The notes: a model not told the origin generated them from the letters alone. A stretch of 64,000 nt of DNA from Gammaproteobacteria bacterium (GCA_039933105.1 JBDTOT010000023.1:115-64114), one strand, 5' to 3'. Counted from the first letter of the stretch, positions 26,018-56,865 are shown. Numbers and translations are program-made.

Positions 26018-26749
26018 ATGCGTAAACCGCCAACGTCAGCCCGTATCCTCGTGGCGCTGCTCGGCCTGTCGCTGGCCGGCGTGGCGGCTGCCACGCGGCC
26101 GGATTTCACCGGCGTGTGGGGCGTGTATCGCGAGCCCGGCGCCGCGGCCCCGCAACGCGGTGCGCCGCAACCGGCGTTACCGCTCAAGCCCGAAGCCAAA
26201 GCGAAGATCGACGCATACCACGCGCTCGTCGACAAGAGCGGTGACACGCCGGGCGGCTTTTGCCTTGGCACCGGCATGCCGGGCTCGATGCTCGGCTCCG
26301 GCGGCTACCCGATGGAGGTCGTTCAGCACGACAAGATGTTCGTCGTCGTGTACGAAGCGCACACCGAAGTGCGGCACATCTACTTAGGCGAGCGCGCGAA
26401 AGAGCAGGATCTGTTCCCCGATCGCAACGGCTATTCGTTCGGCCGTTGGGACGGTGACAGCCTGATCGTCGAAACCACGCATCTGAAGGAGGCCGTCGAT
26501 CAGGCGCGCTATCCGCACAGCGACCAAGCGAAGATCGTCGAGGAGTATCGTCTCGTGACGAACGACGACGGCAGCAAGGTGCTGATCGCCAACATGACAC
26601 TGACCGACCCCACGTTCTACACGCAGCCAATCAAGGCCGAGAAGAAATGGCAGTACCAGCCGGGGATCCGCCTGTTACCGTACGAGTGCACGGAGCCCGC
26701 GTGGGAAGCGCACCTCGAAGAGCTCGCGAACAAACAGGCCGCGCACTAG
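26018..26749 (+). CDS. secreted partner protein L1 of the recurrent S/L module (unknown function)
   Basis: ATG preceded by GGGGGAG, with a signal peptide. Shared motifs: PDFTGVW, P-x3-C-x-G-x-GMP, VRHIY, GYSFGRWDGDSLIVE, YECTE. It is a paralogue of 33092-33952, 48708-49472, 55374-56333 and the C-terminal half of 32022-33077. Confidence 0.75.
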   Translation: MRKPPTSARILVALLGLSLAGVAAATRPDFTGVWGVYREPGAAAPQRGAPQPALPLKPEAKAKIDAYHALVDKSGDTPGGFCLGTGMPGSMLGSGGYPMEVVQHDKMFVVVYEAHTEVRHIYLGERAKEQDLFPDRNGYSFGRWDGDSLIVETTHLKEAVDQARYPHSDQAKIVEEYRLVTNDDGSKVLIANMTLTDPTFYTQPIKAEKKWQYQPGIRLLPYECTEPAWEAHLEELANKQAAH

Positions 26750-26766
26750 TGTGGTCGGAGACGCCA

Positions 26767-27123
26767 ATGAACAAACTGTTAGTTGCACTGCTGCTCACGG
26801 CGGCATTGACGCCACCGGCGTTTGCGCACCACTCCGCGGCGCGGTTCGATCTCACGATTCGCGACCACACGGTCGTAGGGATAGTGAAAGAGTTCAAACC
26901 TGCGAATCCGCACACGAAGATCGTGCTCGAGATTGCGGACGAGAAGGGCAAGCGCGACATCGAATTCGAGGGCCACAGTTTGAACAATTACTACCGTGGC
27001 GGTTGGCGCGAAGGATTGGTCAAGCTCGGTGACAAGATCACGCTGTATGCGGCGCCGACGAAAGACGGCACGGATGGCGGGTACGCGCTCGAAGTCGTAG
27101 CCGCCGATGGCACGAGGTTCTGA
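26767..27123 (+). CDS. small secreted HHS-motif protein S1 (DUF6152-like)
   Basis: 118 aa with GGAG 7 nt upstream of the ATG. Signal peptide ...PPAFA|HHSAARFD, then NPH. One of six paralogous S domains in the window. Confidence 0.8.
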   Translation: MNKLLVALLLTAALTPPAFAHHSAARFDLTIRDHTVVGIVKEFKPANPHTKIVLEIADEKGKRDIEFEGHSLNNYYRGGWREGLVKLGDKITLYAAPTKDGTDGGYALEVVAADGTRF

Positions 27124-27494
27124 TGGACCCCTCCGTCAACGTATTCGGCGAGGAAATCATCGGCTGCAGCGACCGGCCGATCACCGGCTTCTTTCGCGAC
27201 GGCTGCTGCAACACGAGCGATGACGATGTCGGTTCGCACACGGTGTGCGTCGAGGTCACGAAGGATTTTCTCGAGTTCTCGCGCTTCAAGGGCAACGATT
27301 TGTCGACGGCGCGTCCCGAGTTCAATTTTCCGGGCTTGAAGCCGGGCGACCGCTGGTGTTTGTGCGCCGCGCGCTGGCTCGAAGCGCAGCAGCAGGGCAT
27401 GGCGCCGCGCGTGGTGCTCCGGGGCACGCACGAGCGCGCGCTCGAGGTGGTGTCGCTCGATCTCTTGAAGAAGTTCGCCGTCGATTTGAACTAG
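27123..27494 (+). CDS. DUF2237 family protein
   Basis: 123 aa. GFFRDGCCNT ... GNDLSTARPEFNFPGLKPGDRWCLCAARW is the DUF2237 signature. Its start overlaps the S1 stop (TGATG). Confidence 0.85.
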   Translation: MDPSVNVFGEEIIGCSDRPITGFFRDGCCNTSDDDVGSHTVCVEVTKDFLEFSRFKGNDLSTARPEFNFPGLKPGDRWCLCAARWLEAQQQGMAPRVVLRGTHERALEVVSLDLLKKFAVDLN

Positions 27495-27572
27495 GAGATG
27501 GTGAAGCCGGTGTTGTGACAGATCCCGGTAGTGTCTGATAGCTTCCGTCTGGGGGAACAACAGGGGATCGTG

Positions 27573-28457
27573 ATGAAAGTGCTTGGCCGTCTTGTGAGTT
27601 CAGTGGTCGTCGTGTGGGGCCTGTCATCGTTGACGCCCATGTCAGGGCAGTCGCAGCAGCCGCCGCCGAATACCGGCACGCCGGAAGAAACCGCAAAACT
27701 TGCGGTGGCGGCCGGCAAATACGATATCGCCGGGCTGAAGCTCGGCACGCCGCTCAAGGAGTCGATGCAGGCGCTGAAGGCGCACAATCCCAAGCTGCAA
27801 ATGAAACAGGACACTGTTCGGTACGACGTGCTGGGCGCCGACCTGCTCTACGGCCTGACCTTCACGAGCCCGGAGGAAAGATTCATCTTTAGCCTCACGA
27901 TGCCTCCCAATCCGATCGTCGTATCGAGGCTGGCCCGTGTGCTGATATTCACGAAGGAGACGGCGCCGACACAGCAAGTGATCGTCGATGCCTTGATCGA
28001 GAAGTATGGCACGCCCAGTTACGACAACGGCCCCAACCAACTGAACGACGCCAATTTTCGCGTCATCAACTGGTTGGACGATGCCGACGGCAAGCGGATG
28101 AAAGACCCGACCGGCCAGATGTGCACGACGTCCAACTCGTTTACGGGCATACCGCCGCAATCGGCTGAGGCCGCGCAGATGCCGGTGCGGGGAATATCGA
28201 TGCTCCTCGAGTCGCGTTTTTCCATCGGCCAGGGGGATGTCTGTGAGACGCGTCGGATGGTTCAGGCGAGGCTCCAAAAGTGTTGCAGAGACGGCTTGGC
28301 TGCCCCGAATTTGGTCGGAGGGCTAGTGGTCCACCTGGGCGATGGCCCGCTCGACGAACAATCCATCGGCGCGACGCACGAGATGCTCGTGAACGCGACG
28401 AAGGCCAAGGACGCGAAGGAGCAGGAGAGCGCGCAGAAGAACCGGCCGAAGCTGTAG
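27573..28457 (+). CDS. secreted hypothetical protein
   Basis: ATG at 27573 (track ORF starts at 27531). Signal peptide present, no family recognised. The region looks more A/T-rich than its neighbours by eye. Confidence 0.55.
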   Translation: MKVLGRLVSSVVVVWGLSSLTPMSGQSQQPPPNTGTPEETAKLAVAAGKYDIAGLKLGTPLKESMQALKAHNPKLQMKQDTVRYDVLGADLLYGLTFTSPEERFIFSLTMPPNPIVVSRLARVLIFTKETAPTQQVIVDALIEKYGTPSYDNGPNQLNDANFRVINWLDDADGKRMKDPTGQMCTTSNSFTGIPPQSAEAAQMPVRGISMLLESRFSIGQGDVCETRRMVQARLQKCCRDGLAAPNLVGGLVVHLGDGPLDEQSIGATHEMLVNATKAKDAKEQESAQKNRPKL

Positions 28458-28458
28458 A

Positions 28459-30423
28459 TTGATTTCAATACACCGGGAGGGTCCTTCTTTGAAACGCTGC
28501 TGTGCGCACGCGTGGGTCTTGGCCACGCTCATCATCGCCGTCGGAGTCGTTGCAGTGCACGCGCCGCGCGCGAATGCGCAGGCGAAATCGCCGATGGTCG
28601 AGTGGCCCATCTACGGCGGCAACCTTGCATCGCAGTTCTACTCGCCGCTCGATCAGATCAACGCGCGCAACGTAAAGGACCTGAAGGTCGCGTGGCGTTG
28701 GTACGCAGGCAACTTCGGTCCAGATCCGGAGCTGAAGAGCGAGAACACGCCGCTCATGATCGGTGGCGTGCTGTATGCGACCGCTGGCGCCACACGTAAC
28801 GTTGCGGCGATCGACGCCGCCACGGGCGAGACGCTGTGGGTCTGGCGACCGAACGAGACCGAGCGGTTCAAGCAGGCGCCGCGCAAGATGGCCGGGCGCG
28901 GCGTGGCGTACTGGACCGACGGAACGCAAGACAAGCGCGTGTTCGTCGTGACGCCGGGCTTCTTTTTGTGGTCGCTCGACGCGACGACCGGTCTGCCGAA
29001 GCGCGAGTTCGGCGAAGCCGGAGTCGTCGATCTGCGCCGAGGCCTACGCGGGCCAGCGGACAACGTAGAGGCGGGCTCATCGTCGCCCGCGCTCGTGGTG
29101 GGCGACGTGGTGATCGTGGGGCCGGCCGGCGGCATTGGCGCACGGCCGAACTCGAAGACTCAGGTGAAGCTCGACGTGCGCGGCTTCGACGCGAAGAGCG
29201 GCAAGCTCTTGTGGACGTTCCATACGATTCCGGAGAATGCCGAGTTCGGCTACGACACGTGGCTCACGCCGGGCTCTGCCGAGTACACGGGTAACGCGGG
29301 CGTGTGGGCGCCGATGGCGGCCGATCCCACGCTCGGGCTCGTGTATCTGCCGGTCGAAGGCCCCACCAGTGATTTGTACGGCGGCGAGAGGCCCGGCAAT
29401 AATTTGTTTGGCAACACGCTGGTGGCGCTCGACGCGAAGACCGGCCAGCGTGTGTGGCACCAGCAGCTCGTACATCACGACATCTGGGATTACGACAACC
29501 CCACATCGCCGATCCTGCTCGACGTGAGGGTGGGCGGCAAACAAGTCAAAGCCGTGGTGCAGCTCACGAAGCAAGCGTTCGCGTACGCGTTCGATCGCGC
29601 GACCGGTGCGCCGCTCTGGCCGATCGAAGAGCGGCCTGTGCCGACGTCCGACGTGCCGGGCGAATGGACCTCGCCAACGCAGCCGTTTCCGACGAAGCCG
29701 AAAGCCTACGACCGCCAGGGCGTCAGCGAGGCCGATCTCGTCGACTTCACGCCCGCGATCAAGGCGGCGGCGCTCGCGGCCGTCAAAGACTTGCGCATGG
29801 GCCCGATGTATACGACGTCGTCGCTGATCGACGCGACGGACGGCACGCGCGGCGCGCTCGTGCTTCCGCATTTTGGCGGCGGCACGAACTGGGAGGGCGG
29901 CGCGGCGGATCCCGAGACTGGCATGCTGTACGTCGCGTCGCAGACCACGATGAACGTATTCGCCGTGAACCTTGCGAACGGCCGCTCCGACATTCGCTAC
30001 TTGTTCGTAAACGGCGACGCGCCGCATCCGCTCGGATTGCCGCTGATCAAGCCGCCGTATGGCCGTATCACGGCCATCGACATGAACACCGGCGAGCACC
30101 GGTTCATGATTCCGAACGGCGACACACCGGACGACGTCAAGAACAACCCGGCGCTCAAGGGCGTGAAGCTGCCGCCAACGGGTAAGCCGAGCAAGGCCCT
30201 GCTGCTCGTGACGAAGACGCTGCTGTTCGCGGCCGAAGGCTACGGCGGCGGGCCGATCCTGCGGGCGTACGACAAGGCCACCGGCGCCGTGGTGGCTGAG
30301 CTTGCGTTGCCCGGTGTGGCGAGCGGCAAACCCATGACCTACCTATTGAACGGCAAGCAGTACCTCGTGCTGGCCGTTGGCAAGGACCACCCGGCGGAGC
30401 TCGTGGCGTTCGCATTGCCTTAG
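28459..30423 (+). CDS. PQQ-dependent dehydrogenase (glucose/quinate/shikimate-type beta-propeller)
   Basis: 654 aa with a signal or anchor segment. It has WPIYGGNLASQFYSPLDQINARNVKDLKVAWRW, repeated W-docking motifs and TKQAFAYAFDRATGAPLW. The exact start is uncertain. Confidence 0.85.
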   Translation: MISIHREGPSLKRCCAHAWVLATLIIAVGVVAVHAPRANAQAKSPMVEWPIYGGNLASQFYSPLDQINARNVKDLKVAWRWYAGNFGPDPELKSENTPLMIGGVLYATAGATRNVAAIDAATGETLWVWRPNETERFKQAPRKMAGRGVAYWTDGTQDKRVFVVTPGFFLWSLDATTGLPKREFGEAGVVDLRRGLRGPADNVEAGSSSPALVVGDVVIVGPAGGIGARPNSKTQVKLDVRGFDAKSGKLLWTFHTIPENAEFGYDTWLTPGSAEYTGNAGVWAPMAADPTLGLVYLPVEGPTSDLYGGERPGNNLFGNTLVALDAKTGQRVWHQQLVHHDIWDYDNPTSPILLDVRVGGKQVKAVVQLTKQAFAYAFDRATGAPLWPIEERPVPTSDVPGEWTSPTQPFPTKPKAYDRQGVSEADLVDFTPAIKAAALAAVKDLRMGPMYTTSSLIDATDGTRGALVLPHFGGGTNWEGGAADPETGMLYVASQTTMNVFAVNLANGRSDIRYLFVNGDAPHPLGLPLIKPPYGRITAIDMNTGEHRFMIPNGDTPDDVKNNPALKGVKLPPTGKPSKALLLVTKTLLFAAEGYGGGPILRAYDKATGAVVAELALPGVASGKPMTYLLNGKQYLVLAVGKDHPAELVAFALP

Positions 30424-30447
30424 CTGTCTTTTTGGCCCGCCGCTTTC

Positions 30448-31932: not shown

Positions 31933-32021
31933 GGTCGCGGGCTAGTCGAAGCGCGCGGCGACAAGTATGCGAGGCGCGGGTAAACTCCGGGCGTCGTCGG
32001 TTGCGTGAACTGCTGAACGTC

Positions 32022-33077
32022 ATGATGAGAATCGAACGGGGGTGGTTGGCGGCAGCGCTGTGCGCGACGGCGCCGACGGTGTACGCGCACCATAGCGTGT
32101 CCGCGTGGTTCGACACCACGAACATGATCGAGGTCGAAGGGCGGGTGACCGAATTCCGCTGGCAGAACCCGCACGTGATCTTCACGTTGAACGTGGTCGA
32201 CGCGGTTGGCGCGACCACGCCGTGGGCCATCGAGACGCTCTCGATCAGCGGCATCAGCCGCTGGGGCATCACGGAGGATCTTTTCAAGGTCGGCGATTGG
32301 CTGCGTGTGGCAGGCAATCCTGCGCGCAAGGACGGTCACAACATCTTCGTGCGCAACATTCTGCTGCCCGGCGGGCGCGAGATCGTGCTCGGCGGCGCGG
32401 CGCGCTGGTCGAACGATACGCTGCGCGGCAGCGAGCTGCTGCAAGCGCGTGACGGCGACCCTTCGCGGCCCGAGCTCGGCATCTACCGCACGTGGAGCAG
32501 CGGCGGTGTCGGCGCCGTGCTGTTTCCGGAGGCCGTGCAGGCGAATTTCGATTTCAACAAGTATCCGTTGACGGCGGCCGGGCGTGCCGCGCTGCAGAAG
32601 TTCGACTTCGCGGCCGACGACCCCACGGCCGACTGCAAGCCGAAAGGCATGCCGACGGTCATGGAGCAGCCATACCCGATGGTGGTGACCGAGCGCGGTG
32701 CGACCATCGAGATCGCGCTCGAGGAGTACGACACGAGGCGCATCGTGCACATGGGCGCCGCTGGTGCGGCCGCCGCGGCGAAGGCGCAGCCGAGCGCGCT
32801 CGGGTACTCGGTCGGTCGCTGGGAAGATGGCACGCTCGTGGTCACGACGACGAAGTCGATCTGGGGGCACTTCGACAGCGTGGGGATTCCGCTCACGACG
32901 GCTGCCGTCATGGTCGAACGCTTCACCCCGAGCGCCGACGGCGCGCGGCTCGACTACATACTAAGCGTTACGGACGCCGCGACATTCACGATGCCGGTCG
33001 AGCTCAAGAAGGCGTGGATCTGGCGACCCGAGGTTACGATCGGCAAGTTCGAGTGCCAGCGCGTCGTGCGGAGGTAA
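32022..33077 (+). CDS. natural fusion of an S domain and an L domain (secreted, unknown function)
   Basis: The N-terminal half has ...TVYA|HHSVSAWFD ... QNPH ... VGDWLRVAGNP (S-type). The C-terminal half has DDPTADCKPKGMP, TRRIVH, GYSVGRWEDGTLVV and FECQR (L-type). There is no second signal peptide. The start could be TTG 32001 or ATG 32022/32025. Confidence 0.75.
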   Translation: MMRIERGWLAAALCATAPTVYAHHSVSAWFDTTNMIEVEGRVTEFRWQNPHVIFTLNVVDAVGATTPWAIETLSISGISRWGITEDLFKVGDWLRVAGNPARKDGHNIFVRNILLPGGREIVLGGAARWSNDTLRGSELLQARDGDPSRPELGIYRTWSSGGVGAVLFPEAVQANFDFNKYPLTAAGRAALQKFDFAADDPTADCKPKGMPTVMEQPYPMVVTERGATIEIALEEYDTRRIVHMGAAGAAAAAKAQPSALGYSVGRWEDGTLVVTTTKSIWGHFDSVGIPLTTAAVMVERFTPSADGARLDYILSVTDAATFTMPVELKKAWIWRPEVTIGKFECQRVVRR

Positions 33078-33091
33078 GCGGAGTGCTGGCG

Positions 33092-33952
33092 ATGGATACG
33101 CGGGTGCGCGGGGCATGGTTTGGATGTGCGATCACCGTGATTGCGGGGATGGCCGCGGTCGCGACAGAGCGAGGCTCGGCTGCGCAGTGGGTCGACTATC
33201 CCACTGCAAATGTGCCGCGCAATGCCGACGGCTCGCCGAACTTGAAGGCGCCTGCGCCGCGCGCCGCCGACGGCAAGCCAGACCTGTCGGGCATGTGGTT
33301 CTCGGCCGAACTACTCCCGGAGTGCGCCGACACCAAGGTTGACTGCATCCCGCAGATGAATCTCCCTGCCGACCAGATCAACATCGGGCGCACGCTGAAG
33401 GATGGATTGCCGTACACGCCTTGGGCCGCGAAGCTGGTGGCGGAGCGCACGGCAAACGGCGCAAAGGACGATCCGCACGCGTTCTGTCTGCCACCGAACT
33501 TCCCGCGCGCGTACTCTCTGCCGCAGTACATCAAGATCGCGCAGATGCCGAAGCTGACGATCGTGTTGCACGAGTTCAACGCGAGCTATCGGCAAATCTT
33601 CACGGACGGGCGGCCGCTGCCGAAGGATCCGTTGCCGGCGTGGAACGGTTACTCGGTCGGGCATTGGGAACGCGACACACTGGTGGTCGAGTCGAGCGGC
33701 TTCCGCGACGATCTGTGGCTCGATCTTTCGGGCAGCCCGATGACGAGCGCTGCGCACGTGGTGGAGCGCATCAAGCGGCCGAGCTTCGGCTCCCTAGAGA
33801 TCGAGGTCACGGTCAACGATCCCAAGGCCTACACGAAGCCGTGGACGGTGACACTGCGCCAGAACATCGTGCTCGACACCGAATTGATCGAGGAGACGTG
33901 CCTCGAGAACGAGCGCGATACGGGGTTGTTCAAGAAAGAGGGCGCCAAGTGA
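33092..33952 (+). CDS. secreted partner protein L3 of the S/L module
   Basis: 286 aa from ATG 33092 (GTG at 33083 also possible). Motifs: PDLSGMW, DDPHAFCLPPNFP, YRQIFTDGRP, GYSVGHWERDTLVVE, ETCLEN. Confidence 0.75.
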   Translation: MDTRVRGAWFGCAITVIAGMAAVATERGSAAQWVDYPTANVPRNADGSPNLKAPAPRAADGKPDLSGMWFSAELLPECADTKVDCIPQMNLPADQINIGRTLKDGLPYTPWAAKLVAERTANGAKDDPHAFCLPPNFPRAYSLPQYIKIAQMPKLTIVLHEFNASYRQIFTDGRPLPKDPLPAWNGYSVGHWERDTLVVESSGFRDDLWLDLSGSPMTSAAHVVERIKRPSFGSLEIEVTVNDPKAYTKPWTVTLRQNIVLDTELIEETCLENERDTGLFKKEGAK

Positions 33953-34332
33953 AGGCAAAGGTGTTGCTGCTGCCACTGTCTCTGCTGCTGGCGCTACCGA
34001 CGAGCGCGCATCACTCCGGCGCCGCGTACGACCGCGACAAGACGGTGACCGTGAACGGCACCGTGAATTCCGTCGAGTGGACGAGTCCCCACGCCTGGAT
34101 CAAGGTCGACGCCAAGAACGAGGCGGGTGCTGCGGTGACGTGGGAGTTCGAGCTGCCGAGTCCCGTGACACTGACGCGCCGCGGGTGGGCGCGCACGGCG
34201 CTCACGCCCGGCGACAAGATCACGGTGACCGGCGCACTGGCGCGGGAGCATCCGAACATCGCCATTGCGACCGGCGTGATCGACAAGAACGGCCGCCGCC
34301 TGTTCGGCGGCGCCGCGGATTCGAAGGAGTAG
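33949..34332 (+). CDS. small secreted HHS-motif protein S3
   Basis: GTG start overlaps the L3 stop (GTGA). Signal peptide ...LALPTSA|HHSGAAYD, then SPH and PGDKITVTG. Confidence 0.8.
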   Translation: MKAKVLLLPLSLLLALPTSAHHSGAAYDRDKTVTVNGTVNSVEWTSPHAWIKVDAKNEAGAAVTWEFELPSPVTLTRRGWARTALTPGDKITVTGALAREHPNIAIATGVIDKNGRRLFGGAADSKE

Positions 34333-34336
34333 GGCG

Positions 34337-34771
34337 CTAGGCTTTCGCGTCCGCGACGAGCCCGGCCTGTTCGATGCCGTAAGCGCATACGGCCTCGTCT
34401 TCCTCGCCCGTGCCGCCGCTGGCGCCCGCCGCACCCAGGATGTTGCCCTGCGCGTCGCGGATCAGCACGCCGCCGATCTGCGGCAGGAACTTGCCCGCGG
34501 CCGTCGCCGCAAGTGTGATGAAGAAGTTCGGGTTGTCCTTGGCGCGGGCCGCCAGTGCGCGGCTCGAAGCGCCCATGCCGACAGCGGCCCAGGCTTTGCC
34601 GGTGGCCACATCGAACCTGAACATGCTCGCGCCGTCCTCGCGTTGCATGGCCTTCAAGTGCCCCGACTGGTCGAGGACGACCACGGTCACGGGCTTGATC
34701 TTCATTTCGCGCGCCTTCTCCAGCGCCTTCGTGATGATCTGATTGGCCTTCGCGATATCCAGTGTCGACAT
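34337..34771 (-). CDS. GlcG/HbpS-like haem-binding protein (DUF336)
   Basis: 144 aa from the ATG at 34771, preceded by AGGAGG. GGVLIRDAQGNILGAAGASGGTGEEDEAVC matches the DUF336 core. The longer 307-aa track ORF is rejected. Confidence 0.8.
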   Translation of the reverse strand: MSTLDIAKANQIITKALEKAREMKIKPVTVVVLDQSGHLKAMQREDGASMFRFDVATGKAWAAVGMGASSRALAARAKDNPNFFITLAATAAGKFLPQIGGVLIRDAQGNILGAAGASGGTGEEDEAVCAYGIEQAGLVADAKA

Positions 34772-34916
34772 GCGCCTCCTCCCAAAACAGCAACGCCGGC
34801 CTGCAGCATAAAGGCTCGCGCAGACGGTGTCAGGTGTTGTCGCGCGCAGAGGCGGCGTTCGCGATGTCGTTGCAGGCGCGTAGAATGCTGCAGCCGCTGC
34901 GAGGGGAGGTTTCCGA

Positions 34917-35747: not shown

Positions 35748-35765
35748 AACAAGAAGGGGAACTCG

Positions 35766-36149: not shown

Positions 36150-36163
36150 CGCGAGCGGAGGAC

Positions 36164-36655
36164 TCAGCCGCCGCCGGTGCCCAAGTACGGCAGCAACCGG
36201 CCAAACGCCAGCACGCCGAACCAGAACGTCAGCGACAGCACGCCGACCACCTTCGCGAGCGCCGGCGTGGCGTCGTGCGGCCCCAAGCGCAGGAGCTTCG
36301 GCTCGACCGCAAAGAAGTAGAGCAGAAAGTTCAAGCCAGCCGCCACGACCAGAATCATTTTGGCCCAGAACGACCAGTTGCCGGAGTAGTTGTACGGGTC
36401 GCCGAAAAAGAAGCACACGCCGGTAATCAAGTTGATCGAGAAGGCGGCGATCGCCCACGGCATCAGGCTGTGCACGGCCTTCAATGGAATCGTGCGCTGG
36501 AAGCCGATCAAGCGCAGGTCCATCACGAGCAACGCGCCCATCAACACGCATAGGCCGAGGAAGTGCAGCGACTCGAGCGTCGGCCAGCTCCAGGGGTAGC
36601 CCAGGACGAGCTTGTTGAGCCACGTGGTCAGCATCCAGTCATAGATGTGGTGCAT
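36164..36655 (-). CDS. 4-TM membrane protein, tandem paralogue B
   Basis: 163 aa. It shares P-T-x-x-[ST]-LH-x-[IL]-G, [VM]-DLRL-[LI]-G, IN-[LT]-x-[ST]-G and GRL with the upstream gene 36668-37162. Confidence 0.65.
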   Translation of the reverse strand: MHHIYDWMLTTWLNKLVLGYPWSWPTLESLHFLGLCVLMGALLVMDLRLIGFQRTIPLKAVHSLMPWAIAAFSINLITGVCFFFGDPYNYSGNWSFWAKMILVVAAGLNFLLYFFAVEPKLLRLGPHDATPALAKVVGVLSLTFWFGVLAFGRLLPYLGTGGG

Positions 36656-36667
36656 TTGGCTCGTCTC

Positions 36668-37162
36668 CTAAATGAAAATCATGATGTAGGCCGTGAGTCG
36701 ACCTGTCACGATCGCGCAGAGCCAAAAAACGATCCCGATCGCGGCGATGTTGCGAACGCGTGCCGGCGGCTTGCCACCGGGCCACGTGCTTGCCTTGGCA
36801 AGCTCCGGCTGCAGGATGCCGGCGGTCGCGGCGCCGGCGAACACGAGCACGATTTTCGCGATGAACATGAGGTCCGTGGCGAACATCGTAGCCTGCGCCA
36901 CGAACAGCCCCGAGCCCGACAATGTGTTGATGAGGAAGCCGACCCAGGCGACCGGCAGCAGCTTCTGCAGCGACTCGTACGGAATGCCGTCGAATCGGCC
37001 GAGTAGCCGCAGATCCACGATCACGCACAGGCCGACCATGATCGCCATGCCGATGGCGTGGAGCGTGATGACGGTCGGATAGCCTTCGCTCGACATCCGA
37101 ACCCATTCGGCGAGCTTGCTCGCCTCTAACCAAGCAAAGAATGCCACGCGAAGTTCCCCCAA
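36668..37162 (-). CDS. 4-TM membrane protein, tandem paralogue A
   Basis: 164 aa with a TTG start (start uncertain). Paralogous to 36164-36655, with a 12-nt intergenic gap. Confidence 0.65.
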   Translation of the reverse strand: MGELRVAFFAWLEASKLAEWVRMSSEGYPTVITLHAIGMAIMVGLCVIVDLRLLGRFDGIPYESLQKLLPVAWVGFLINTLSGSGLFVAQATMFATDLMFIAKIVLVFAGAATAGILQPELAKASTWPGGKPPARVRNIAAIGIVFWLCAIVTGRLTAYIMIFI

Positions 37163-45464: not shown

Positions 45465-45465
45465 A

Positions 45466-45906: not shown

Positions 45907-45946
45907 CGCCGGTCGACGTCGACAACGGCCATGTTCCGATGCGTGG

Positions 45947-48016: not shown

Positions 48017-48252
48017 GGCTTCCCCCTCGTATGGCGGCGGTGAGAATCATCGCCCGCGTGGCGCGCTCGTGAAGTCGATCCACGAGGCGACACGTTGAAC
48101 GATAGTACTTTCGAAAACGCGAGGCCATCGGGGCGCGGCCGGTGTCGTCGGGGGGCTTGCTTCGTAGACGGCGGCGCACAACCATAGCGGCGAGTCAGCC
48201 GAGGTGGCCCTTATCGGGCCGGCGAACCGTGTTCTTGATCGGGAGATTCCGC

Positions 48253-48711
48253 ATGGCCACTGCCCATCGCGCCTCGCGCGTCATCGTCGCCGCGTTTGGT
48301 CTCGTCATCGCGGCAGGCGCGGCCGCTCATCACTCGTACGCCATGTTCGAGCCTGCGCGGACGGCGACCGTCACGGGCACGGTTGCGAAGCTCGAGTGGA
48401 CGAATCCGCACGTGTTCATCTGGATGTACGTGCCGAACGCGGCGCGCGACAACGGGTTCGATTTGTATGCGTTCGAGAATGGGTCGCCGAACGTGCTGCT
48501 GAAGCGGGGATGGTCCAAGGAGACATTCGCGGTCGGCGAGAAACTATCGATCGCCTATTGGCCGCTCGCCGACGGGCGCACGGGTGGGCACTTCGCAGTC
48601 GCCACGCGCGTGGACGGCAGCGTCATTCGCGGCGCGGGCGGGCCCGGTGGCGGTGTCGACGCCTCGGACGCCGTCGGTGCACCCACGGCACCGCCGGCAG
48701 GTAAGCCGTGA
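48253..48711 (+). CDS. small secreted HHS-motif protein S4 (with Gly/Pro-rich tail)
   Basis: ATG preceded by GGGAG. Signal peptide ...AAGAAA|HHSYAMFE, then NPH and VGEKLSIAYWP. It has a low-complexity C-terminal extension. Confidence 0.8.
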   Translation: MATAHRASRVIVAAFGLVIAAGAAAHHSYAMFEPARTATVTGTVAKLEWTNPHVFIWMYVPNAARDNGFDLYAFENGSPNVLLKRGWSKETFAVGEKLSIAYWPLADGRTGGHFAVATRVDGSVIRGAGGPGGGVDASDAVGAPTAPPAGKP

Positions 48712-49472
48712 GCACACGCACGAACCGATGTTGGCGTTGGGGCGGCGCGTTGCTGGGTGCGCTCGTTACCGTCACCGCCTCGGCTCAGCCGGCGAGTAAC
48801 CTGCCGGGCGCTACCTACGCCTCGCTCGCGAAGCTGCCCGACTGGAGCGGATGGTGGGGCTTCGGACAAGCAGGGCAGGACGAGCTGCGAACGCACCCGT
48901 TGCCGCTGCAGCCTGCGGCGCGCGATGCCGCCCGCGCCGCGGGACCCGATGCGGATCCGCTGCGCTACTGTCGGCCGTTGCAGTTCACGGGCTCGAGCGG
49001 AGGCTTCACGGAAGCGGTCGAGTTCTTGTTCACACCGGGCCGCGTGACCGTGACGAACGAGCGCGGCCTGGTTCGGCGCATCTACTCCGATGGCCGGGGG
49101 ATGTCCGCGGAGCCCGATCCGACGAACACCGGCGTGTCGATCGGCCGTTGGGAGGGCGAGATGCTCATCGTCGAAACGCGAGGCATCAATCCGCTCGCGT
49201 CGTATGGCGGTGTGCCGATCGGTAAGAATGTGCGGATCACCGAGCGCATATTCCTCAAGGATCCGGGCACGCTGCAGATCGATGTCGTGACCGAAGCGCC
49301 CGACGTGCTCACGCAGCCCGATCGCCGGACGCGCCTCTACCAGCGCGTCGGGAAAACCATGGCGAACGAGATCACGTGGTGCACCGAGTACGATCGCTCG
49401 ATCGAGCCGGGCTCGGGCAAACAGCGTTTCGACCTGACGCCGCCCGCCGATTTGCCGCCGCCGCCGCGCTAG
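48708..49472 (+). CDS. secreted partner protein L4 of the S/L module
   Basis: GTG start overlaps the S4 stop (GTGA). Motifs: PDWSGWW, DPLRYCRPLQF, VRRIYSDGRG, GVSIGRWEGEMLIVE, TWCTEY. Confidence 0.75.
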   Translation: MSTRTNRCWRWGGALLGALVTVTASAQPASNLPGATYASLAKLPDWSGWWGFGQAGQDELRTHPLPLQPAARDAARAAGPDADPLRYCRPLQFTGSSGGFTEAVEFLFTPGRVTVTNERGLVRRIYSDGRGMSAEPDPTNTGVSIGRWEGEMLIVETRGINPLASYGGVPIGKNVRITERIFLKDPGTLQIDVVTEAPDVLTQPDRRTRLYQRVGKTMANEITWCTEYDRSIEPGSGKQRFDLTPPADLPPPPR

Positions 49473-49480
49473 CTCGAAGA

Positions 49481-51247
49481 TCAGCGCGTCGGCAGCGCGA
49501 ACACGAACAGCTTGTTGCGGCTGTCGTTGGGCGCGACATCCGGCGTCAGCCGCGAGAGCCCGCCCGTCATGTTGGAGCGGCCGGTGCTCACCGCTACGTA
49601 CTGCTTGCCGCCGGCTTCGAACGTGATCGGGTGCCCGGTGACCTGCGAGCCTACATTCGTTTCCCACAGCACCTTGCCCGTCGTCGCGTCGAACGCACGA
49701 AAGTTGCCCGCCACGTCGCCGCCGAATACGAGGTCGCCCGCCGTTGCGACGAGCGCCGTCACGCCCGCGCGCGTGTCGAACCGCCACACGGCCTTGCCGG
49801 TCTCGGCCGAGAGCGCGCGCACCGTGCCGACCTTACCGTCCGCGTCCGGCGTGATCATTGTCTCGCCGCTGATGGCGTAGAGAAGCTCCGGTTTTCGCTC
49901 GGTCGTCGCGGCCGTGGTCACGTTCCAGCAGGTGTTCTGCAACGGCATGTACATGGCCTTCGTGCGCGGGCTGTATGCGCCGGCAGGCCAGTTCTTGCCT
50001 CCGTTCGTCGTCGGGCAGATGAACAGCGTTTGATTCGCCGCGGTGAACAAGGCTTTTTCGTTGACCGTGACCTTGCCGGTGGCGCCGTCGATACCCGCGA
50101 CCACATTCTGGAAGATGGTCGGCCGTGCCCACAGAAATTCGCCCGTGACGCGATCGAGCGTGTAGACGAGGCCGGTCTTGCCGGGTATTCCCGTCACGAC
50201 TTTGCGGTGCTCGCCGGGCTTCAGCCGAGGGTTGATCCACGGCACTTCGCTCTTGTCGGGCGCAACGGCCGTGTCGAGCAGAATTCGCTCGAACGGGTGA
50301 TCGAGATCCCAGTGGTCGACGACGTGCTGGTAGTACCACGCGGTTTCGCCGGTGGCCGGACGCAGCGCGAGCGTCGAGTTGTGGTAGAGGTACTGCTTGT
50401 CATTGCCGGCCAGCAGGAACTTCGGTGCCGGTGCCGTGACCGACGTGCCCATATAGATGAGATCGAGCTCGGGGTCGTAGCTCGGCATCATCCACGCGCC
50501 GACGTGCCAACGGCCCGAATCCGGTATGTCGCCCCAACTGTCGCCGCCGGGCTCGCCAGGTTTCGGGATCGTGCGCTTGCGCCACAGTTCCTTACCGGTG
50601 TGCGCGTCGTGCGCCGTGATCACGCACGCATCGGGCCCGCCCTGCGGCTGGCAATTGCGGCCCGAGATCAGCTTGCCCGCGACGACGAAAGGCGCCGTGC
50701 CCTGTTTCACGTGACTCACGTGATAGTCGAAGACCTTGTTCTCCCACACGAGCTTGCCGGTCGCTGCATCGAGCGCGTAGATCGTGTTGTCGGCGCCGTT
50801 GTCGATGATCAGTCGATCGTAGATCGCGAGGTTGCGATTCGTCTGCGGGAACGGCACGAACTTGCCCAGATCTTCCGGGAGTGCGCGACGGTGTTCCCAG
50901 AGTGTCTTGCCGGTCGCCGCGTCGAGCGCGACGGTGTGGTCCGACGGGTTGGGGAAATACATGACGCCGTCGTGCACGATCGGCGTGCCTTCCTGCGACG
51001 GCGCGTCGTCGAGGTCGATCGACCATGCGACCTTCAAACTACCGACGTTGCTGCGGTTGATCTGGTCGAGTGGGCTGTAGCCCCACGCATCGAATGTGCG
51101 CCGCCACATGAGCCAGTCGGCGTCGTCCGGGTGCCTAAGCATCGCGTCGGTCACGGGGCGGAACTCGTGCTCGGCGGCATTCGCGCCGATAGCGGCGGCG
51201 AAGCAGAGCGAAACAGCGAGTAGGGTGGTGCGGGTTGGCATCGGCAA
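49481..51247 (-). CDS. PQQ-dependent dehydrogenase (methanol/ethanol-family-like quinoprotein)
   Basis: 588 aa with a signal peptide. WLMWRRTFDAWGYSPLDQINRSNVGSLKVAWS and an eight-blade W-motif pattern are present. Confidence 0.85.
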   Translation of the reverse strand: MPMPTRTTLLAVSLCFAAAIGANAAEHEFRPVTDAMLRHPDDADWLMWRRTFDAWGYSPLDQINRSNVGSLKVAWSIDLDDAPSQEGTPIVHDGVMYFPNPSDHTVALDAATGKTLWEHRRALPEDLGKFVPFPQTNRNLAIYDRLIIDNGADNTIYALDAATGKLVWENKVFDYHVSHVKQGTAPFVVAGKLISGRNCQPQGGPDACVITAHDAHTGKELWRKRTIPKPGEPGGDSWGDIPDSGRWHVGAWMMPSYDPELDLIYMGTSVTAPAPKFLLAGNDKQYLYHNSTLALRPATGETAWYYQHVVDHWDLDHPFERILLDTAVAPDKSEVPWINPRLKPGEHRKVVTGIPGKTGLVYTLDRVTGEFLWARPTIFQNVVAGIDGATGKVTVNEKALFTAANQTLFICPTTNGGKNWPAGAYSPRTKAMYMPLQNTCWNVTTAATTERKPELLYAISGETMITPDADGKVGTVRALSAETGKAVWRFDTRAGVTALVATAGDLVFGGDVAGNFRAFDATTGKVLWETNVGSQVTGHPITFEAGGKQYVAVSTGRSNMTGGLSRLTPDVAPNDSRNKLFVFALPTR

Positions 51248-51407
51248 GGTCCCCCTTCGTTAGCGGCGATTCGAATTGTCGCTCAAGCGTGCGTCGCTGC
51301 GACAGTCCGGGCTAGCCCGCAGCGCGCGCTTCAAGATCGTCGCGACCGGGTTCCGCGGAATGCTGGGCGGAGTGTTCGCGGAGTTGTAGAGTACGCTGCA
51401 CTCCGCC

Positions 51408-52871: not shown

Positions 52872-52888
52872 CTTTTCAAGGAGGCTGC

Positions 52889-54055
52889 ATGAAACGTAGC
52901 ACTGACCGCATTCTTACGACGCACGCGGGCAGCCTGCCGCGGCCCGACTATCTGCTCGAAGGCTATCGCGAGCGGCCCGCGGAGCCGTCGACGTCGGCGC
53001 TCCTGCGCGGCGCAGTCGCCGAGGTCGTGGCGCAGCAGGTCGTGGCTGGCATTGATGTCGTCAACGATGGCGAGTATGGCAAGCCCATGACGGAAGCAGT
53101 CGACTATGGCGCGTGGGCCACGTATGTCTCCGGCAGGCTGAGCGGCTTCGAGCAGCGCGAGCTCACGAACGTCGCAGGCGTACTCAAGGAGATCATGGGG
53201 GACAGTAAGGATCGGAAGGACTTCGCCGCGTTCTACGCGGCCGGTTCCCCCATGGTCGAGCGTCGTGGGCCGCCGCGCGTCTCGATCAATGTCGGACCGA
53301 TTGCATACACCGGCCAGGCGCTCGTCCAGCGCGACATCGATAACTTCAAGGCGGCGCTCGGCGCGGCGCCGGCCGAAGATGCGTACTTGAGCGCTGTCTT
53401 CACGGGTGTGCAGTTCGGCAAGAGCGAGTACTACCGAAGCAGCGAGGAACAGGCGGTGGCCTGCGCCGAGGCCATGCGCGAGGAGTACCAGGCGATCGTG
53501 AATGCGGGCCTGAACGTGCAGATCGACGACCCGATCCTCGTCAACGTCTACGAGTTTCGCTATTCGGAAAACCGCGATGTAGCCGCTTTCCGCAAGTGGG
53601 CGGCCGAGCACGTGGCGCTCGTGAACCATGCGCTCGAGGGCATTCCGGAGGAGCGCATTCGCTATCACCTATGTTGGGGCAGCTGGCACGGGCCGCACAG
53701 CGCCGACCTGCCGATGCGGGACGTCATCGATCTGTTGCTGAAGGTCAAAGCCAGTCAGTACTCGTTCGAGGCGGCGAACCCGCAGCACGAGCACGAGTGG
53801 AAGGTGTGGAAGGACGTGAAGCTGCCTGCGGGGCGCGCGCTGATCCCCGGCGTCGTCACGCACAAGACGACGATCCTCGAGCATCCCGAGACCGTGTGCG
53901 ACCGGATCGTGCGCTACGCGAACGTGGTGGGTCGCGAGAACGTGATCGCGGGAACCGATTGCGGAATGGGCGGACGCATTCACCCTCAGGTTGCATGGGC
54001 CAAGCTGAAAGCGCTCGCAGAGGGCGCCGCGCTCGCCACCGAGCAGCTATGGTGA
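52889..54055 (+). CDS. cobalamin-independent methionine synthase II (MetE C-terminal-like) family protein
   Basis: 388 aa. ILTTHAGSLPRP, QIDDP and a H-x-C ... C zinc-ligand pattern (YHLCWG, GTDCGMG) are present. Confidence 0.75.
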   Translation: MKRSTDRILTTHAGSLPRPDYLLEGYRERPAEPSTSALLRGAVAEVVAQQVVAGIDVVNDGEYGKPMTEAVDYGAWATYVSGRLSGFEQRELTNVAGVLKEIMGDSKDRKDFAAFYAAGSPMVERRGPPRVSINVGPIAYTGQALVQRDIDNFKAALGAAPAEDAYLSAVFTGVQFGKSEYYRSSEEQAVACAEAMREEYQAIVNAGLNVQIDDPILVNVYEFRYSENRDVAAFRKWAAEHVALVNHALEGIPEERIRYHLCWGSWHGPHSADLPMRDVIDLLLKVKASQYSFEAANPQHEHEWKVWKDVKLPAGRALIPGVVTHKTTILEHPETVCDRIVRYANVVGRENVIAGTDCGMGGRIHPQVAWAKLKALAEGAALATEQLW

Positions 54056-54103
54056 CCGGGCCGTTCTGGCTAGTAATAAACATAAGAATGAGTGCGTAAC
54101 TTC

Positions 54104-54967
54104 ATGATTGAGCTACGAGTGGGTGGTGTGCCCGAGCACTTCAATTTGCCGTGGCATTTGGCCGTGGAAGCCCGCGTGCCGGAACGCCTCGGCGTGGGGC
54201 TCACATGGCGGGACTATCCCGATGGCTCGGGCGCCATGGCGGCCGCGCTGCGCTCAGGTGAGCTCGACGCGGCACTCTTGTTGACAGAGGGCGCAATGGC
54301 CGGCATCGCGAACGGCGGCGGATTCAAGATCGCAAGTCTGTACACGGAATCGTCGTTGATCTGGGGCATCCACGTGCCCGCGCGCTCGCAATTTGCGAGC
54401 GTGGGCGACATCCGCGGCGCCCGCTACGCGATCAGTCGCTTGGGTTCGGGCTCGCATCTGATGGCGGTCGTGCACGCTCGTGCGCAGGCGTGGCCGGTCG
54501 ACACGCTCGAGTGGGTGACGGTGCGCAATCTCGCCGGCGCCATCGACGCGTTCGCGAGCGGCGCGGCCGATGTGTTCTTCTGGGAGAAGTTCATGACGAA
54601 GCCGCTGGTCGATGACGGCCGGTTTCGGCGCGTCGGTGAATTCCTAGCGCCATGGCCAGCGTTCGTCGTGTGTGTCGCCGACTGCGTCGGAGCGCCACAG
54701 CGCGCAGCACTGCGCGCGCTGGTGGCCGCGGTTCTCGCCGAGGCCGCAACCATGGTGGCTCGGCAGGATGCCTCGGTGGTGATCGGCCAGCGCTACTCGC
54801 TCGCACCCGACGATGTGGCGGAGTGGTTGCGGGTAACGCGCTGGGCGAGCGATGTCGGCGTCGAAACCAGCGACCTCACGCAGGTGACGGCGGCGTTGCA
54901 GGATCTGCAGCTCGTGCCGCCGACGTTCCAACCCGAGAGCGCGCTGCTGCCGCTAAACGGGAGCTGA
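54104..54967 (+). CDS. NMT1/THI5-like (periplasmic-binding-fold) protein without obvious signal
   Basis: LRVGGVPEHFNLPWHLA and SRLGSGSHLM motifs. The start could be GTG 54092 or ATG 54104. Confidence 0.65.
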   Translation: MIELRVGGVPEHFNLPWHLAVEARVPERLGVGLTWRDYPDGSGAMAAALRSGELDAALLLTEGAMAGIANGGGFKIASLYTESSLIWGIHVPARSQFASVGDIRGARYAISRLGSGSHLMAVVHARAQAWPVDTLEWVTVRNLAGAIDAFASGAADVFFWEKFMTKPLVDDGRFRRVGEFLAPWPAFVVCVADCVGAPQRAALRALVAAVLAEAATMVARQDASVVIGQRYSLAPDDVAEWLRVTRWASDVGVETSDLTQVTAALQDLQLVPPTFQPESALLPLNGS

Positions 54968-54977
54968 GCAACAGCGA

Positions 54978-55364
54978 TTACTTGATCGCGAAGCCGGCGC
55001 CCGGGTTGAGTTCCTTGCCGTCGCCACGCGTGGCCTTCATCCACGCCGCTGCGGGGCGGCCGTCCTTCATCGGGTGGCCGGTGATCGTGACCTCGGTGCC
55101 CGGAGAGAGATCGCTCTTGCGGATACCGGCACGAGTCAGAGTGCTCGGGCCCTCGGCCTCGAAGCCCCACGTCGTGACGGTGCCATCCGTGTTCTTGACG
55201 TCGACGAGCAACCACGAGTGCGGGTTCGTGTACTGAAACTCTTTCACGGTGCCCTTGACGGTGACCTCTTTGGCGTCATCGAACATGACGGCCGAGTGGT
55301 GCGCAAAGCTGGGCGCTGCTACGAGTGCGAGCCCGCCAAATGCGATTGCCAGAATCTGTTTCAT
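54978..55364 (-). CDS. small secreted HHS-motif protein S5
   Basis: 128 aa. Signal peptide ...VAAPSFA|HHSAVMFD, then NPH and PGTEVTITGHP. Its AGGAG ribosome-binding site overlaps the TAG stop of L5. Confidence 0.8.
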   Translation of the reverse strand: MKQILAIAFGGLALVAAPSFAHHSAVMFDDAKEVTVKGTVKEFQYTNPHSWLLVDVKNTDGTVTTWGFEAEGPSTLTRAGIRKSDLSPGTEVTITGHPMKDGRPAAAWMKATRGDGKELNPGAGFAIK

Positions 55365-55373
55365 CGTCGTCTC

Positions 55374-56333
55374 CTACTTGTCGCCTTTCTTCGTGAAATT
55401 GAAGTTCGTGAAATCAGAACTGCCGGTATCGGTCTTGGTGACCGTATTGTTTTGGTTTTCCCCACAGTCCCAGTAACGGATACGCAGACTCTTGTCGTCG
55501 TTCGACAGGCGCTTGTAGGTCTGTTGAGTGTACCAAGGTTCCGCAAGAGCCGGCGGGTCGAAGGCCCAGATGTCGACGGCCATCGTATCGGCATCCGCCT
55601 TTTGCCAGATTTCGACGGTCTCGACCTGCTCTGTGTAGTACGGCTGAATGCGCTGGTATTGACCGGCCCGCATCTGCGCGGTGTGGATCACGAGCTTGTT
55701 GCCGTCCCAGAAGCCGATCGAGTCGCCTTCCCAGAGCGGATAGGCGTCTTCTGCACTCGGGTGATCGCGGCCATCTGTGTAGACGCGACGCATCTCATTC
55801 TGCATCTCGTTGACGAGATACGTTTCCTGCGGAGTCACGACCCATTCGCGCAAAAACGGCTCGACCATCCATCGCGGCATGCCGGCAGGCTCGCAGTTGC
55901 TCAGCGGATCGAACTCGATGCCCCGGTTGATCTTGTCGAGCTTGTCCATGAGGCGTTTGCTGAATTCGGGCGTCAGCTTTGCTGTCGGCAATGCCGTGGG
56001 AGACCCTTGATCCGGATCCCAGAAGAACGGGCTCGCTTCGCGCGTCCAGACACCCGTCCAATCGGGAACCGTCTCCCATAACAGCGCTTTGCCGCCCTGA
56101 GCTTGTTGCTTCAAGTGGTCGTACAGCGCCCGAGCCGTCTTGTATTCAATGCCAAGATTCGTCAGGCGCTGCTTTTCGGCGGCGCGCGCTGCGGGTATGG
56201 AGGGCGCCGCGGCCGCCGTACCCGTGGCGGCGGGGGGCTGCGGTGCAGGTTGTTGTTGACAGGCGGTCGCAGCGATTGTCGCGATCGCGACGCACAGCAT
56301 CCGGCAGCCAGCAGTGCTGATAGTGCTCATCAT
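55374..56333 (-). CDS. partner protein L5 of the S/L module, probable lipoprotein
   Basis: 319 aa with a lipobox-like IAATAC followed by a Q/P/A-rich linker. Motifs: PDWTGVW, DPLSNCEPAGMP, MRRVYTDGRD, GDSIGFWDGNKLVI, WDCGEN. Confidence 0.75.
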   Translation of the reverse strand: MMSTISTAGCRMLCVAIATIAATACQQQPAPQPPAATGTAAAAPSIPAARAAEKQRLTNLGIEYKTARALYDHLKQQAQGGKALLWETVPDWTGVWTREASPFFWDPDQGSPTALPTAKLTPEFSKRLMDKLDKINRGIEFDPLSNCEPAGMPRWMVEPFLREWVVTPQETYLVNEMQNEMRRVYTDGRDHPSAEDAYPLWEGDSIGFWDGNKLVIHTAQMRAGQYQRIQPYYTEQVETVEIWQKADADTMAVDIWAFDPPALAEPWYTQQTYKRLSNDDKSLRIRYWDCGENQNNTVTKTDTGSSDFTNFNFTKKGDK

Positions 56334-56487
56334 CTCGAAGCGTCTCCCCCAGCTCGCCCGTGCTTAAGATTCGGGGCCTATTGTAGTGCGCGTCGTGGCG
56401 CAGCGGTACAGACGGGGGCCGCTGGTCTTGGCGGAATGAACTTGCTAAGGTCGAGACGTATCGGCGGGGTCGGAAAGAGGGTAAGGA

Positions 56488-56865
56488 ATGCGTACCGGTT
56501 GGCGTTATGTCGCTGCACTCCTGTGCGCTTTGGCGGTCGTCGCAGCCTTGCCCGCGTCTGGTCACCATTCCTTCGCGGTCTACGACTTCGAACAACAGAT
56601 TCCGTTCGAGGGCGTCGTGGCTACGTTGAGCTTCAAGAACCCGCACATGTCGATGACCTTGACGCACACGCGCCCGGATGGCAGTACCGAGACGATCGAT
56701 TTCGTCGAAGGCGCGCCGGCGAACATGGCCGTGCGCGGCGGCCTCACGCCTGACATGATCAAGCCGGGTACCAAGATCACTGCGATCGGTTCGCCGCGGC
56801 GCGACAATCCGAACGTGTTCTTCCTGCGCCACGTTCGGCTCGCGGACGGCCGCGAATTCATGTAG
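56488..56865 (+). CDS. small secreted HHS-motif protein S6 (no adjacent L on its own strand)
   Basis: 125 aa with a good ribosome-binding site (AAGAGGGTAAGGA). Signal peptide ...ALPASG|HHSFAVYD, then NPH and PGTKITAIGSP. Confidence 0.8.
   Translation: MRTGWRYVAALLCALAVVAALPASGHHSFAVYDFEQQIPFEGVVATLSFKNPHMSMTLTHTRPDGSTETIDFVEGAPANMAVRGGLTPDMIKPGTKITAIGSPRRDNPNVFFLRHVRLADGREFM

Follow-up and report, generated by a model that had tools for sequence, protein, structure and literature searches.

What do six copies of one small secreted domain and five of another do together when they are set side by side within 31 kb of a bacterial contig? The question is raised by positions 26018-56865 of a 64,000-nucleotide stretch of DNA from a Gammaproteobacteria bacterium (JBDTOT010000023.1:115-64114; hereafter the window), which belongs to a contig of 65% GC in a soil metagenome-assembled genome (MAG). 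A first-pass annotation had recognised there an S domain, with a signal peptide followed directly by His-His-Ser, and an L domain, with two invariant cysteines, and had proposed them as an undescribed periplasmic two-component system. All ten open reading frames (ORFs) that it named are present at the positions given below, with coding-type GC content at third codon positions (GC3, 0.74-0.87), and a scan of all six frames with profile hidden Markov models (HMMs) returned no further S or L copy in the window, so the count of six S and five L domains stands. Two parts there are, but not a two-component system in the histidine-kinase sense, HisKA/HATPase and receiver domains being absent from S and L. 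Our favoured answer, tentative and held at a little under an even chance, is that S and L form a periplasmic complex, S contributing a metal site that resembles a histidine brace and L holding a small ligand.

L1 (26018..26749, +; an alternative start lies at 25985), a secreted protein of 243 amino acids identified from the L alignment and an AlphaFold2 (AF2) model as a putative calycin-like barrel, is followed after 17 nt by S1 (26767..27123, +), a DUF6152 protein with a predicted OB-fold that matches PF19649 at 70 bits, its signal peptide ending in AFA before HHS and an NPH motif lying 26 residues on. A single gene then joins an S domain (32022..32414, +; 67 bits to PF19649, with OB-fold matches to its AF2 model) to a linker and L domain (32415..33077, +; E ~1e-81 with the L HMM), and this fusion could also start at 32001. 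L3 (33092..33952, +) begins 14 nt past the fusion gene and shares a four-base GTGA overlap with S3 (33949..34332, +; 102 bits, TSA then HHS). The same overlap joins S4 (48253..48711, +; 83 bits, AAA then HHS) to L4 (48708..49472, +), which is convergent with a pyrroloquinoline quinone (PQQ) dehydrogenase gene at 49481-51247. On the opposite strand S5 (54978..55364, -; 117 bits) lies 9 nt from L5 (55374..56333, -), a protein of 319 amino acids with an N-terminal extension whose orthologues in 26 MAG loci are 59-96% identical; L3, L4 and L5 were all recognised from the L alignment. S6 (56488..56865, +; 65 bits) is divergent from L5, with 155 nt between them, and has no L on its own strand. The first-pass statement that S and L are always neighbours, with GTGA overlaps or gaps under 20 nt, thus describes the other copies well and fails for S6. 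L5 and its closest orthologues also contain a possible lipobox (AATAC; ...IAATAC then QQQ) whose Cys is absent in more distant orthologues, and membrane anchoring of L5-type proteins may vary by lineage.

The S and L families

All six S copies match PF19649 (DUF6152) at 65-117 bits and E-values of 6e-18 to 5e-34, well above the gathering cut-off of 27 bits, bearing out the resemblance to DUF6152 first noticed. Profile searches assigned S to no characterised family, DUF6152 alone matching; the Pfam entry is a sequence family with no function or partner recorded, and no papers on DUF6152 were found in the searchable literature. A search of PDB sequences with an S profile gave no credible match, its one weak hit being to an unrelated enzyme (E 1.7e-4). 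In pairwise BLASTP comparison the window copies are 26-48% identical (E 5e-7 to 3e-27), and their alignment keeps HHS, G-x-V and P-H invariant. The S-L fusion protein was modelled with AF2 from a 139-sequence alignment, with a predicted local distance difference test score (pLDDT) of 89.9 and a predicted template-modelling score (pTM) of 0.84. Foldseek matched the S part of this model to PriB, SSB, Rim1 and the anticodon-binding domain of LysRS (LysRS-N), with probability 1.0 and template-modelling (TM) scores of 0.54-0.69 on target, and S is predicted to be an OB-fold barrel of ~100 residues.

The most regular feature of S is its N-terminus. Among 57 S ORFs, HHS or HHG stands directly past the signal-peptidase site in 56 (sites called by eye with the -3/-1 rule; position -1 is Ala or Gly and position -3 usually small or aliphatic), the sole ORF without this pattern being a truncated fragment. 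Counting from His1, a P-H comes 25 or 26 residues on (NPH n=53, SPH n=1, MPH/APH n=2), so that the motifs listed in the first-pass annotation are upheld while its spacing of about 30 residues is not. With the signal peptide cut right before the invariant His-His-Ser, mature S would begin with a free His1 amino group. In known histidine-brace proteins it is likewise removal of the signal peptide that unmasks the His1 amine, and copper is bound by this amine, the His1 side chain and a second His (PMC10952591). A first mature residue of His, as such a site calls for, is what sequence prediction gives for the same 56 S copies. A review of histidine-brace proteins covers LPMO, X325, Bim1, CopC, PmoF1, pMMO/pAMO and YcnI, with neither DUF6152 nor an OB-fold in it (PMC10952591), and no paper joining 'histidine brace' with 'OB-fold' was found in the searchable literature. 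Homology or a shared fold with a known brace family, that is an Ig/FnIII-like or cupredoxin-like sandwich, is not seen in S with its predicted OB-fold, and S therefore belongs to no known brace family; by analogy it could nevertheless work like a histidine-brace protein. To our knowledge, all known brace folds are beta-sandwiches and none is an OB-fold.

Judged by their sequences, the five L copies are true homologues and old paralogues (25-32% identity in pairwise BLASTP, E 3e-5 to 1e-15), and the identities within both families agree with the ancient divergence that had been suggested for the window copies. Seventeen columns of their alignment are invariant, among them both cysteines, G-x-S-x-G-x-W, and E, R and P residues. 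The motifs and the two cysteines, first proposed from the window, persist when the alignment is broadened to 168 L domains, drawn from 150 representatives that share <=50% identity, where Cys1 is conserved in 99%, Cys2 in 91%, R in 96%, the residues of G-S-G-W in 91-99% and D-P in 97%; the consensus reads pd.sG.w, dp...ClP.G.p, E, R.i..Dgr, P...G.S.G.WeGdtLVv.T, ER, DP...t.Pw, C.en. L is a large family: the L HMM retrieved 16,349 of 1.84 billion cluster representatives (50% identity level) at E <=1e-3, and 9,025 at E <=1e-10. A word-indexed search returned more than 2,031 matches, none with a Pfam domain and every named one a 'hypothetical protein'. L had no match in Pfam, NCBIfam or PADLOC, Pfam being blank in all 86 members scanned, and none among PDB chains even with a 90-sequence profile, so that the absence of a characterised function, asserted at the outset for both families, is confirmed by these searches; by the same Pfam and PDB profile searches, L does not belong to the lipocalin, FABP or avidin families at the sequence level.

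Since OB-fold matches had dominated the Foldseek search of the fusion model, the L domain was modelled separately, as L1. The AF2 model has a pLDDT of 79 overall and >90 in the barrel strands, and its top 50 PDB matches in Foldseek are all FABP, CRABP, CRBP, avidins or SAHS proteins, mostly with probability 0.93-1.0. On this model, L is tentatively best described as an up-and-down barrel of ~200 residues of calycin-like (FABP/avidin/lipocalin) type. Cys1 lies on an N-terminal arm and Cys2 near the C-terminus, and a disulfide between them is likely. Among the best 150 L representatives 122 contain a single L, 17 are tandem L-L proteins and 11 have a C-terminal extension that, where identifiable, is DUF3471. 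The tandem proteins are 480-530 amino acids long (P0241-P0250, P0004, and L040 7001-8440, in which three-digit numbers denote fetched loci); the L-DUF3471 fusions include P0326-P0349, and DUF3471 otherwise sits behind beta-lactamase-type hydrolases.

Pairing of S and L

Co-occurrence outside this genome, on which the first-pass annotation had staked its proposal, is found for every core L that we examined. In the window and 38 fetched loci, all 46 core L domains have an S beside them; in the other direction, 49 of 63 S have a same-strand L within 400 nt (38 as L then S, 7 as S then L, 4 fused). An L5-type query retrieved 26 loci, all from Gammaproteobacteria MAGs, with an S ORF directly downstream of L in every one, though the use of an L5-type alignment as genome-scan query biases these loci to one lineage. 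Other L types are likewise paired with S (P0045, the L1-like P0059, and a Vicinamibacterales-labelled contig). A search of 72,556 plasmids for S gave 13 records, including Novosphingobium, Sphingobium, Croceibacterium, Sinorhizobium and Azospirillum, and a search of the same plasmids for L gave 8 records, all 8 among the 13 with S, the number of places being equal for S and L in 7 of these 8. L adjoins S in six of the seven loci fetched from cultured Alphaproteobacteria with an S query, one of them an L-S-L-S array in Sphingobium. Four distant L representatives, picked arbitrarily, all adjoin a DUF6152 gene, two with a 4-nt overlap; one of the four is a Bryobacteraceae-type L-L tandem (L040) with the DUF6152 gene 28 nt upstream. 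Start/stop overlaps of 4 nt recur in the window, L030, L035, L042 and L043. The pair is thus found in Gammaproteobacteria, Alphaproteobacteria and an Acidobacteriota-type contig, and these cross-phylum cases are the real evidence for coupling.

Fusion takes the association a step further. More than 115 full-length homologues of the fused protein were found at 55-88% identity, and locus L038 carries a fused S-L paralogue that is 30% identical. In every fused form found the order is S then L, despite an unfused gene order that is mostly L then S; neither the 150 diverse L representatives nor the homologues listed include a fusion with L first. L proteins of 340-360 amino acids were considered as candidate L-S fusions and rejected, the extension being DUF3471 or unidentified, and not S. 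That the fusions found all run S then L fits a need for a free S N-terminus, the His-His end remaining exposed in this arrangement.

It is important to note that the two families can also be met apart. Plasmid p1 of Azospirillum brasilense Sp7 (L034 4819-6830) has a LysR gene, an S of the HHG variant and a single DUF6644 gene, with no detectable L, and is the one sampled case of S without L. Conversely, an ORF that distantly resembles L (E 1e-10 to 1e-17 with the L profile) and has no adjoining S lies near a metallo-beta-lactamase-fold gene in up to 13 loci, for example L004 (ORF at 9204-10073, -; metallo-beta-lactamase-fold gene at 8210-9187, -), the others being L001, L003, L006-L008, L012, L014, L018, L021, L024, L026 and L027; it is directly upstream of the metallo-beta-lactamase-fold gene in both loci checked (L001, L004). 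The pairing of L-type barrels may therefore extend to further metalloproteins. We also considered whether L5 and S5 are unusually conserved among the related loci, and rejected this, since their medians of 72% and 79% are comparable to those of flanking genes (55-81%).

A proposed function, its genomic setting and the alternatives

Family membership, gene coupling, invariant residues and the direction of fusion, taken with the predicted folds, lead us to infer a periplasmic S-L complex of the following kind. We hypothesize that S and L would each supply half of one periplasmic protein unit, joint synthesis being ensured by translational coupling of their genes or by fusion into one chain with S first. 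In S, the His1 amine, the His-His pair and the third invariant His (of N-P-H) would form a mononuclear brace-type metal site, with copper the most likely metal; in L, the conserved polar set (E, R, E-R, D-P) and the probable disulfide would make the barrel a small-ligand pocket. A small molecule would sit in L, and S would present the metal centre to it. The ligand would vary among the diverged copies and may be a compound entering via TonB-dependent receptors; in this lineage, the adjoining periplasmic PQQ dehydrogenases and cytochrome c could supply electrons. It is tempting to speculate that S-L represents a new class of periplasmic copper enzyme, in which an OB-fold brace and a calycin-like substrate barrel would oxidise TonB-imported small molecules or oligosaccharides with electrons from PQQ dehydrogenases or cytochrome c, each paralogue being specific for its substrate; we regard this fuller version as quite unlikely.

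The first-pass annotation had placed all the loci among periplasmic redox enzymes, a setting that proves typical of this lineage and is not family-wide, TonB-dependent receptors, hydrolases and small-molecule regulators being the company kept elsewhere. L1-S1 of the window forms a tightly packed same-strand group with genes for DUF2237, a secreted protein of 308 amino acids and a PQQ dehydrogenase (27123..30423, +; identified with Pfam), likely as one operon. The DUF2237 gene (27123-27494, +) encodes no signal peptide and overlaps the S1 stop codon by one base, as it also does in L038. Both PQQ dehydrogenases of the window (28459-30423, +, and 49481-51247, -) have an Asp two residues past the catalytic Asp (WDYD and WDLD), which we take to mark lanthanide- rather than calcium-dependent enzymes of this type. 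The fusion-L3-S3 block is divergent from a gene for a major facilitator superfamily (MFS) transporter in the window and L038, and L5-S5/S6 adjoins genes for cytochrome c, a thiamine pyrophosphate (TPP) enzyme of twin-arginine translocation (Tat) type and a GAF-GGDEF protein. The syntenic locus L038 keeps the arrangements of the window, including the order L1-S1, DUF2237, 308-residue protein and PQQ dehydrogenase, and in L037 an S heads a cluster of PQQ dehydrogenase, metallo-beta-lactamase-fold protein, glyoxalase and GSDH genes. The genes for cytochrome c and the TPP enzyme with its twin-arginine leader (56899-59306, -) are a conserved pair by S6/L5 in 10-15 related loci; it is unusual for a periplasmic TPP enzyme to come with a cytochrome of its own. 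Orthologues of S6 in related genomes either stand at the head of a TonB-dependent receptor gene (29 nt separate the two in L024) or have an L of their own after them, with the receptor next (these loci are L024 2796-5784, -, L004, L008 and L019, and L006/L007 1292-5615, -); the equivalent position in the window is occupied by the cytochrome c and TPP genes.

More widely, genes for TonB-dependent receptors share the strand of S or L, adjacent or a few kb away, in L024, L031, L040 and L043, and nearby also in L028, L032 and L035; none could be given a subtype, all scoring below every NCBIfam subfamily cut-off, that of the copper receptor included. Neighbours outside the lineage of the window comprise a GH39-like protein, G8/CEMIP beta-helix proteins, a luciferase-like monooxygenase, TauD, peroxiredoxin and hydrolases, the GH39-like gene and the G8/CEMIP beta-helix genes standing beside S-L in two Sphingomonadales loci. 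Two tandem genes for DUF6644 (PF20349) membrane proteins, possible associates, lie at 36164-36655 and 36668-37162 (-) of the window, and DUF6644 genes are found beside S or L in five alphaproteobacterial loci (L030 3355-4327, L032 4854-5854, L033 7370-8411, L034 6327-6830 and L035 6459-7516), as tandem pairs except for the single gene of L034. DUF6644 proteins have four predicted transmembrane segments and invariant P, H, R, G, K, W and G-R residues, the invariant His being in the first hydrophobic segment. No papers on DUF6644 were found in the searchable literature, and DUF2214, to which it has a faint likeness, appears only in two survey papers. A further possible associate, of the L3-S3 cluster, is an HbpS-like (GlcG) gene at 34337..34792 (-; PF03928, 102 bits), with counterparts beside S in L038 (11305-11739) and Sinorhizobium mexicanum (L033 5261-5755), which hints at a haem or redox link. 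PADLOC returned no match for S5, L5, L1, the fusion or DUF6644.

Several observations weigh against a metal-bearing S complexed with a ligand-holding L. The Foldseek matches of L1 are weak (E >=1e-3, TM 0.4-0.6 on target), and neither His, Met nor a free Cys is conserved in L. All fused forms may stem from one or two fusion events, and most fetched loci come from one lineage; with so many loci of a single lineage, raw S-L counts overstate independence. A receptor lies within 6 kb in ~7 of 18 independent contexts, which may be no enrichment at all; these bacteria are rich in TonB-dependent receptors, so none can be claimed. Nearby regulators are of MarR, TetR, LysR and AraC types, a site scan found no Fur, Zur or MerR/CueR-type boxes near S or L, and no copper oxidase or P-type ATPase turned up among the neighbours. 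Some of these points count equally against an unlikely alternative, that S-L serves metal trafficking, with S as a metallochaperone of CopC, YcnI or CusF kind handing metal from a TonB receptor to inner-membrane proteins such as DUF6644, and L as an accessory or docking part. The invariant N-terminal His-His and third His of S would suit such a role, receptor genes adjoin S or S-L in several loci, and the His-bearing DUF6644 accompanies S/L in the window and the five alphaproteobacterial loci, with Azospirillum having S and DUF6644 and no L. Below the Pfam cut-off, moreover, 5 of 11 DUF6644 members match DUF2214 and 1 of 11 matches CopD (E 5e-4); yet hhalign of DUF6644 with E. coli CopD (YebZ) gives a probability of 0.1%, and DUF6644 is absent from L038 and most other S-L loci. 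Six S copies per 31 kb would be unusual for metal homeostasis, neither Fur/Zur boxes nor metal regulators were found, the receptors fall under the copper receptor cut-off along with all others, and the strict coupling to L would be left unexplained.

An unlikely reading on a par with trafficking dispenses with the metal altogether: L would ferry an aromatic acid, a siderophore, PQQ or a tetrapyrrole between TonB receptor and MFS transporter or periplasmic enzyme, and the His-His of S would either close the barrel as a lid or bind the cargo directly, in the manner, say, of an axial ligand of haem. Calycin-like barrels are classic small-ligand binders and many paralogues would suit many cargoes; the divergent MFS gene beside the fusion gene in the window and L038, the HbpS-like haem-related genes beside S in three loci, and the catabolic enzymes and small-molecule regulators among the neighbours are all in keeping with this. 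A lid or axial ligand, however, requires neither the exact mature N-terminus of 56 in 57 S nor a fixed spacing to the third His, and the polar core of L is conserved across very distant members, which suggests shared chemistry rather than varied cargo. Alternatively, S-L could have no substrate itself and instead serve periplasmic dehydrogenases, either as their dedicated redox partner or by scavenging reactive oxygen. PQQ dehydrogenases packed with S-L as if in an operon, and with no cytochrome c next to them, would agree with this, as would the cytochrome c and Tat-type TPP enzyme by S6 in its related loci and the peroxiredoxin or AhpC genes near S-L in L035 and L042; but PQQ enzyme and cytochrome are absent from most S-L loci outside the lineage, S-L has no Cys ligand of the sort typical of electron-transfer copper sites, and we judge the idea very unlikely. 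Roles as a lanthanide chaperone or PQQ chaperone were set aside, His ligands suiting neither and most S-L loci being without PQQ enzymes. Finally, many long false ORFs arise in GC-rich DNA, and chance likeness of motifs or spurious ORFs might in principle account for the whole pattern; coding-type GC3, significant Pfam matches, thousands of homologues and synteny across phyla refute this, and its probability is practically nil.

Significance and comparison with known systems

We are aware of no characterised system with the make-up of S-L, where a predicted OB-fold beginning with His-His has a calycin-like protein as its obligate partner, a statement that reflects the lack of characterised relatives and not a demonstrated mechanism; no solved structure, function or paper for S or L was found in the searchable literature and databases. 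What is new here is that L, for which Pfam has no entry, is defined as a family, that S and L are found to follow a pairing rule, and that genetically tractable hosts are recognised. The pair is present in culturable Novosphingobium, Sphingobium and Sinorhizobium, which makes the hypothesis directly testable. If the His-His of S is a metal site, a histidine-brace-type centre would for the first time be placed on an OB-fold, and for the first time depend on a separate barrel subunit. The proposal, if true, would add to what periplasmic copper biochemistry is known to include, and could explain a so far unexplained step in the handling of compounds imported by TonB-dependent receptors or oxidised by PQQ enzymes.

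Each half of the pair calls to mind known proteins. ZinT (YodA) and the siderocalins are up-and-down barrels, as is tentatively predicted of L, and bind metals or chelates in the periplasm or outside the cell. The N-terminus of ZinT is His-rich, whereas in the present system the His-rich N-terminus is on a separate protein, the OB-fold S, and L has no conserved His; neither sequence profiles nor Foldseek matched L to ZinT or siderocalin. CusF is, as S is predicted to be, a small periplasmic OB-fold, and metal binding is proposed for S as well. In CusF, Cu(I) or Ag(I) is held by Met, His and Trp inside the barrel and not at the N-terminus, while S has no Met motif, and CusF is outside the top 50 Foldseek matches of S.

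Closer in design are the CopC/CopD and YcnI/YcnJ systems, in which, as proposed here, a small secreted protein has an N-terminal His exposed by cleavage and further conserved His, and the partners are sometimes His-bearing membrane proteins. CopC and YcnI, however, are cupredoxin- or Ig-like sandwiches, in contrast to the predicted OB-fold, His-His-Ser terminus and obligate calycin-like partner of S; S-L also has no copper-related gene context, and DUF6644 has no detectable similarity to E. coli CopD. With the lytic polysaccharide monooxygenases (LPMOs), S has no relation in sequence or fold, and S-L has no flat substrate-binding sandwich, needing a separate L barrel instead. The likeness lies in an N-terminal His exposed, or in S predicted to be exposed, on secretion and in the many diverged paralogues per genome, and it may extend to redox partners: PQQ dehydrogenases are able to drive LPMOs, and the PQQ and GSDH dehydrogenases and cytochrome c that adjoin S-L recall the cellobiose dehydrogenase and PQQ-dependent AA12 enzymes that serve LPMOs in that capacity.

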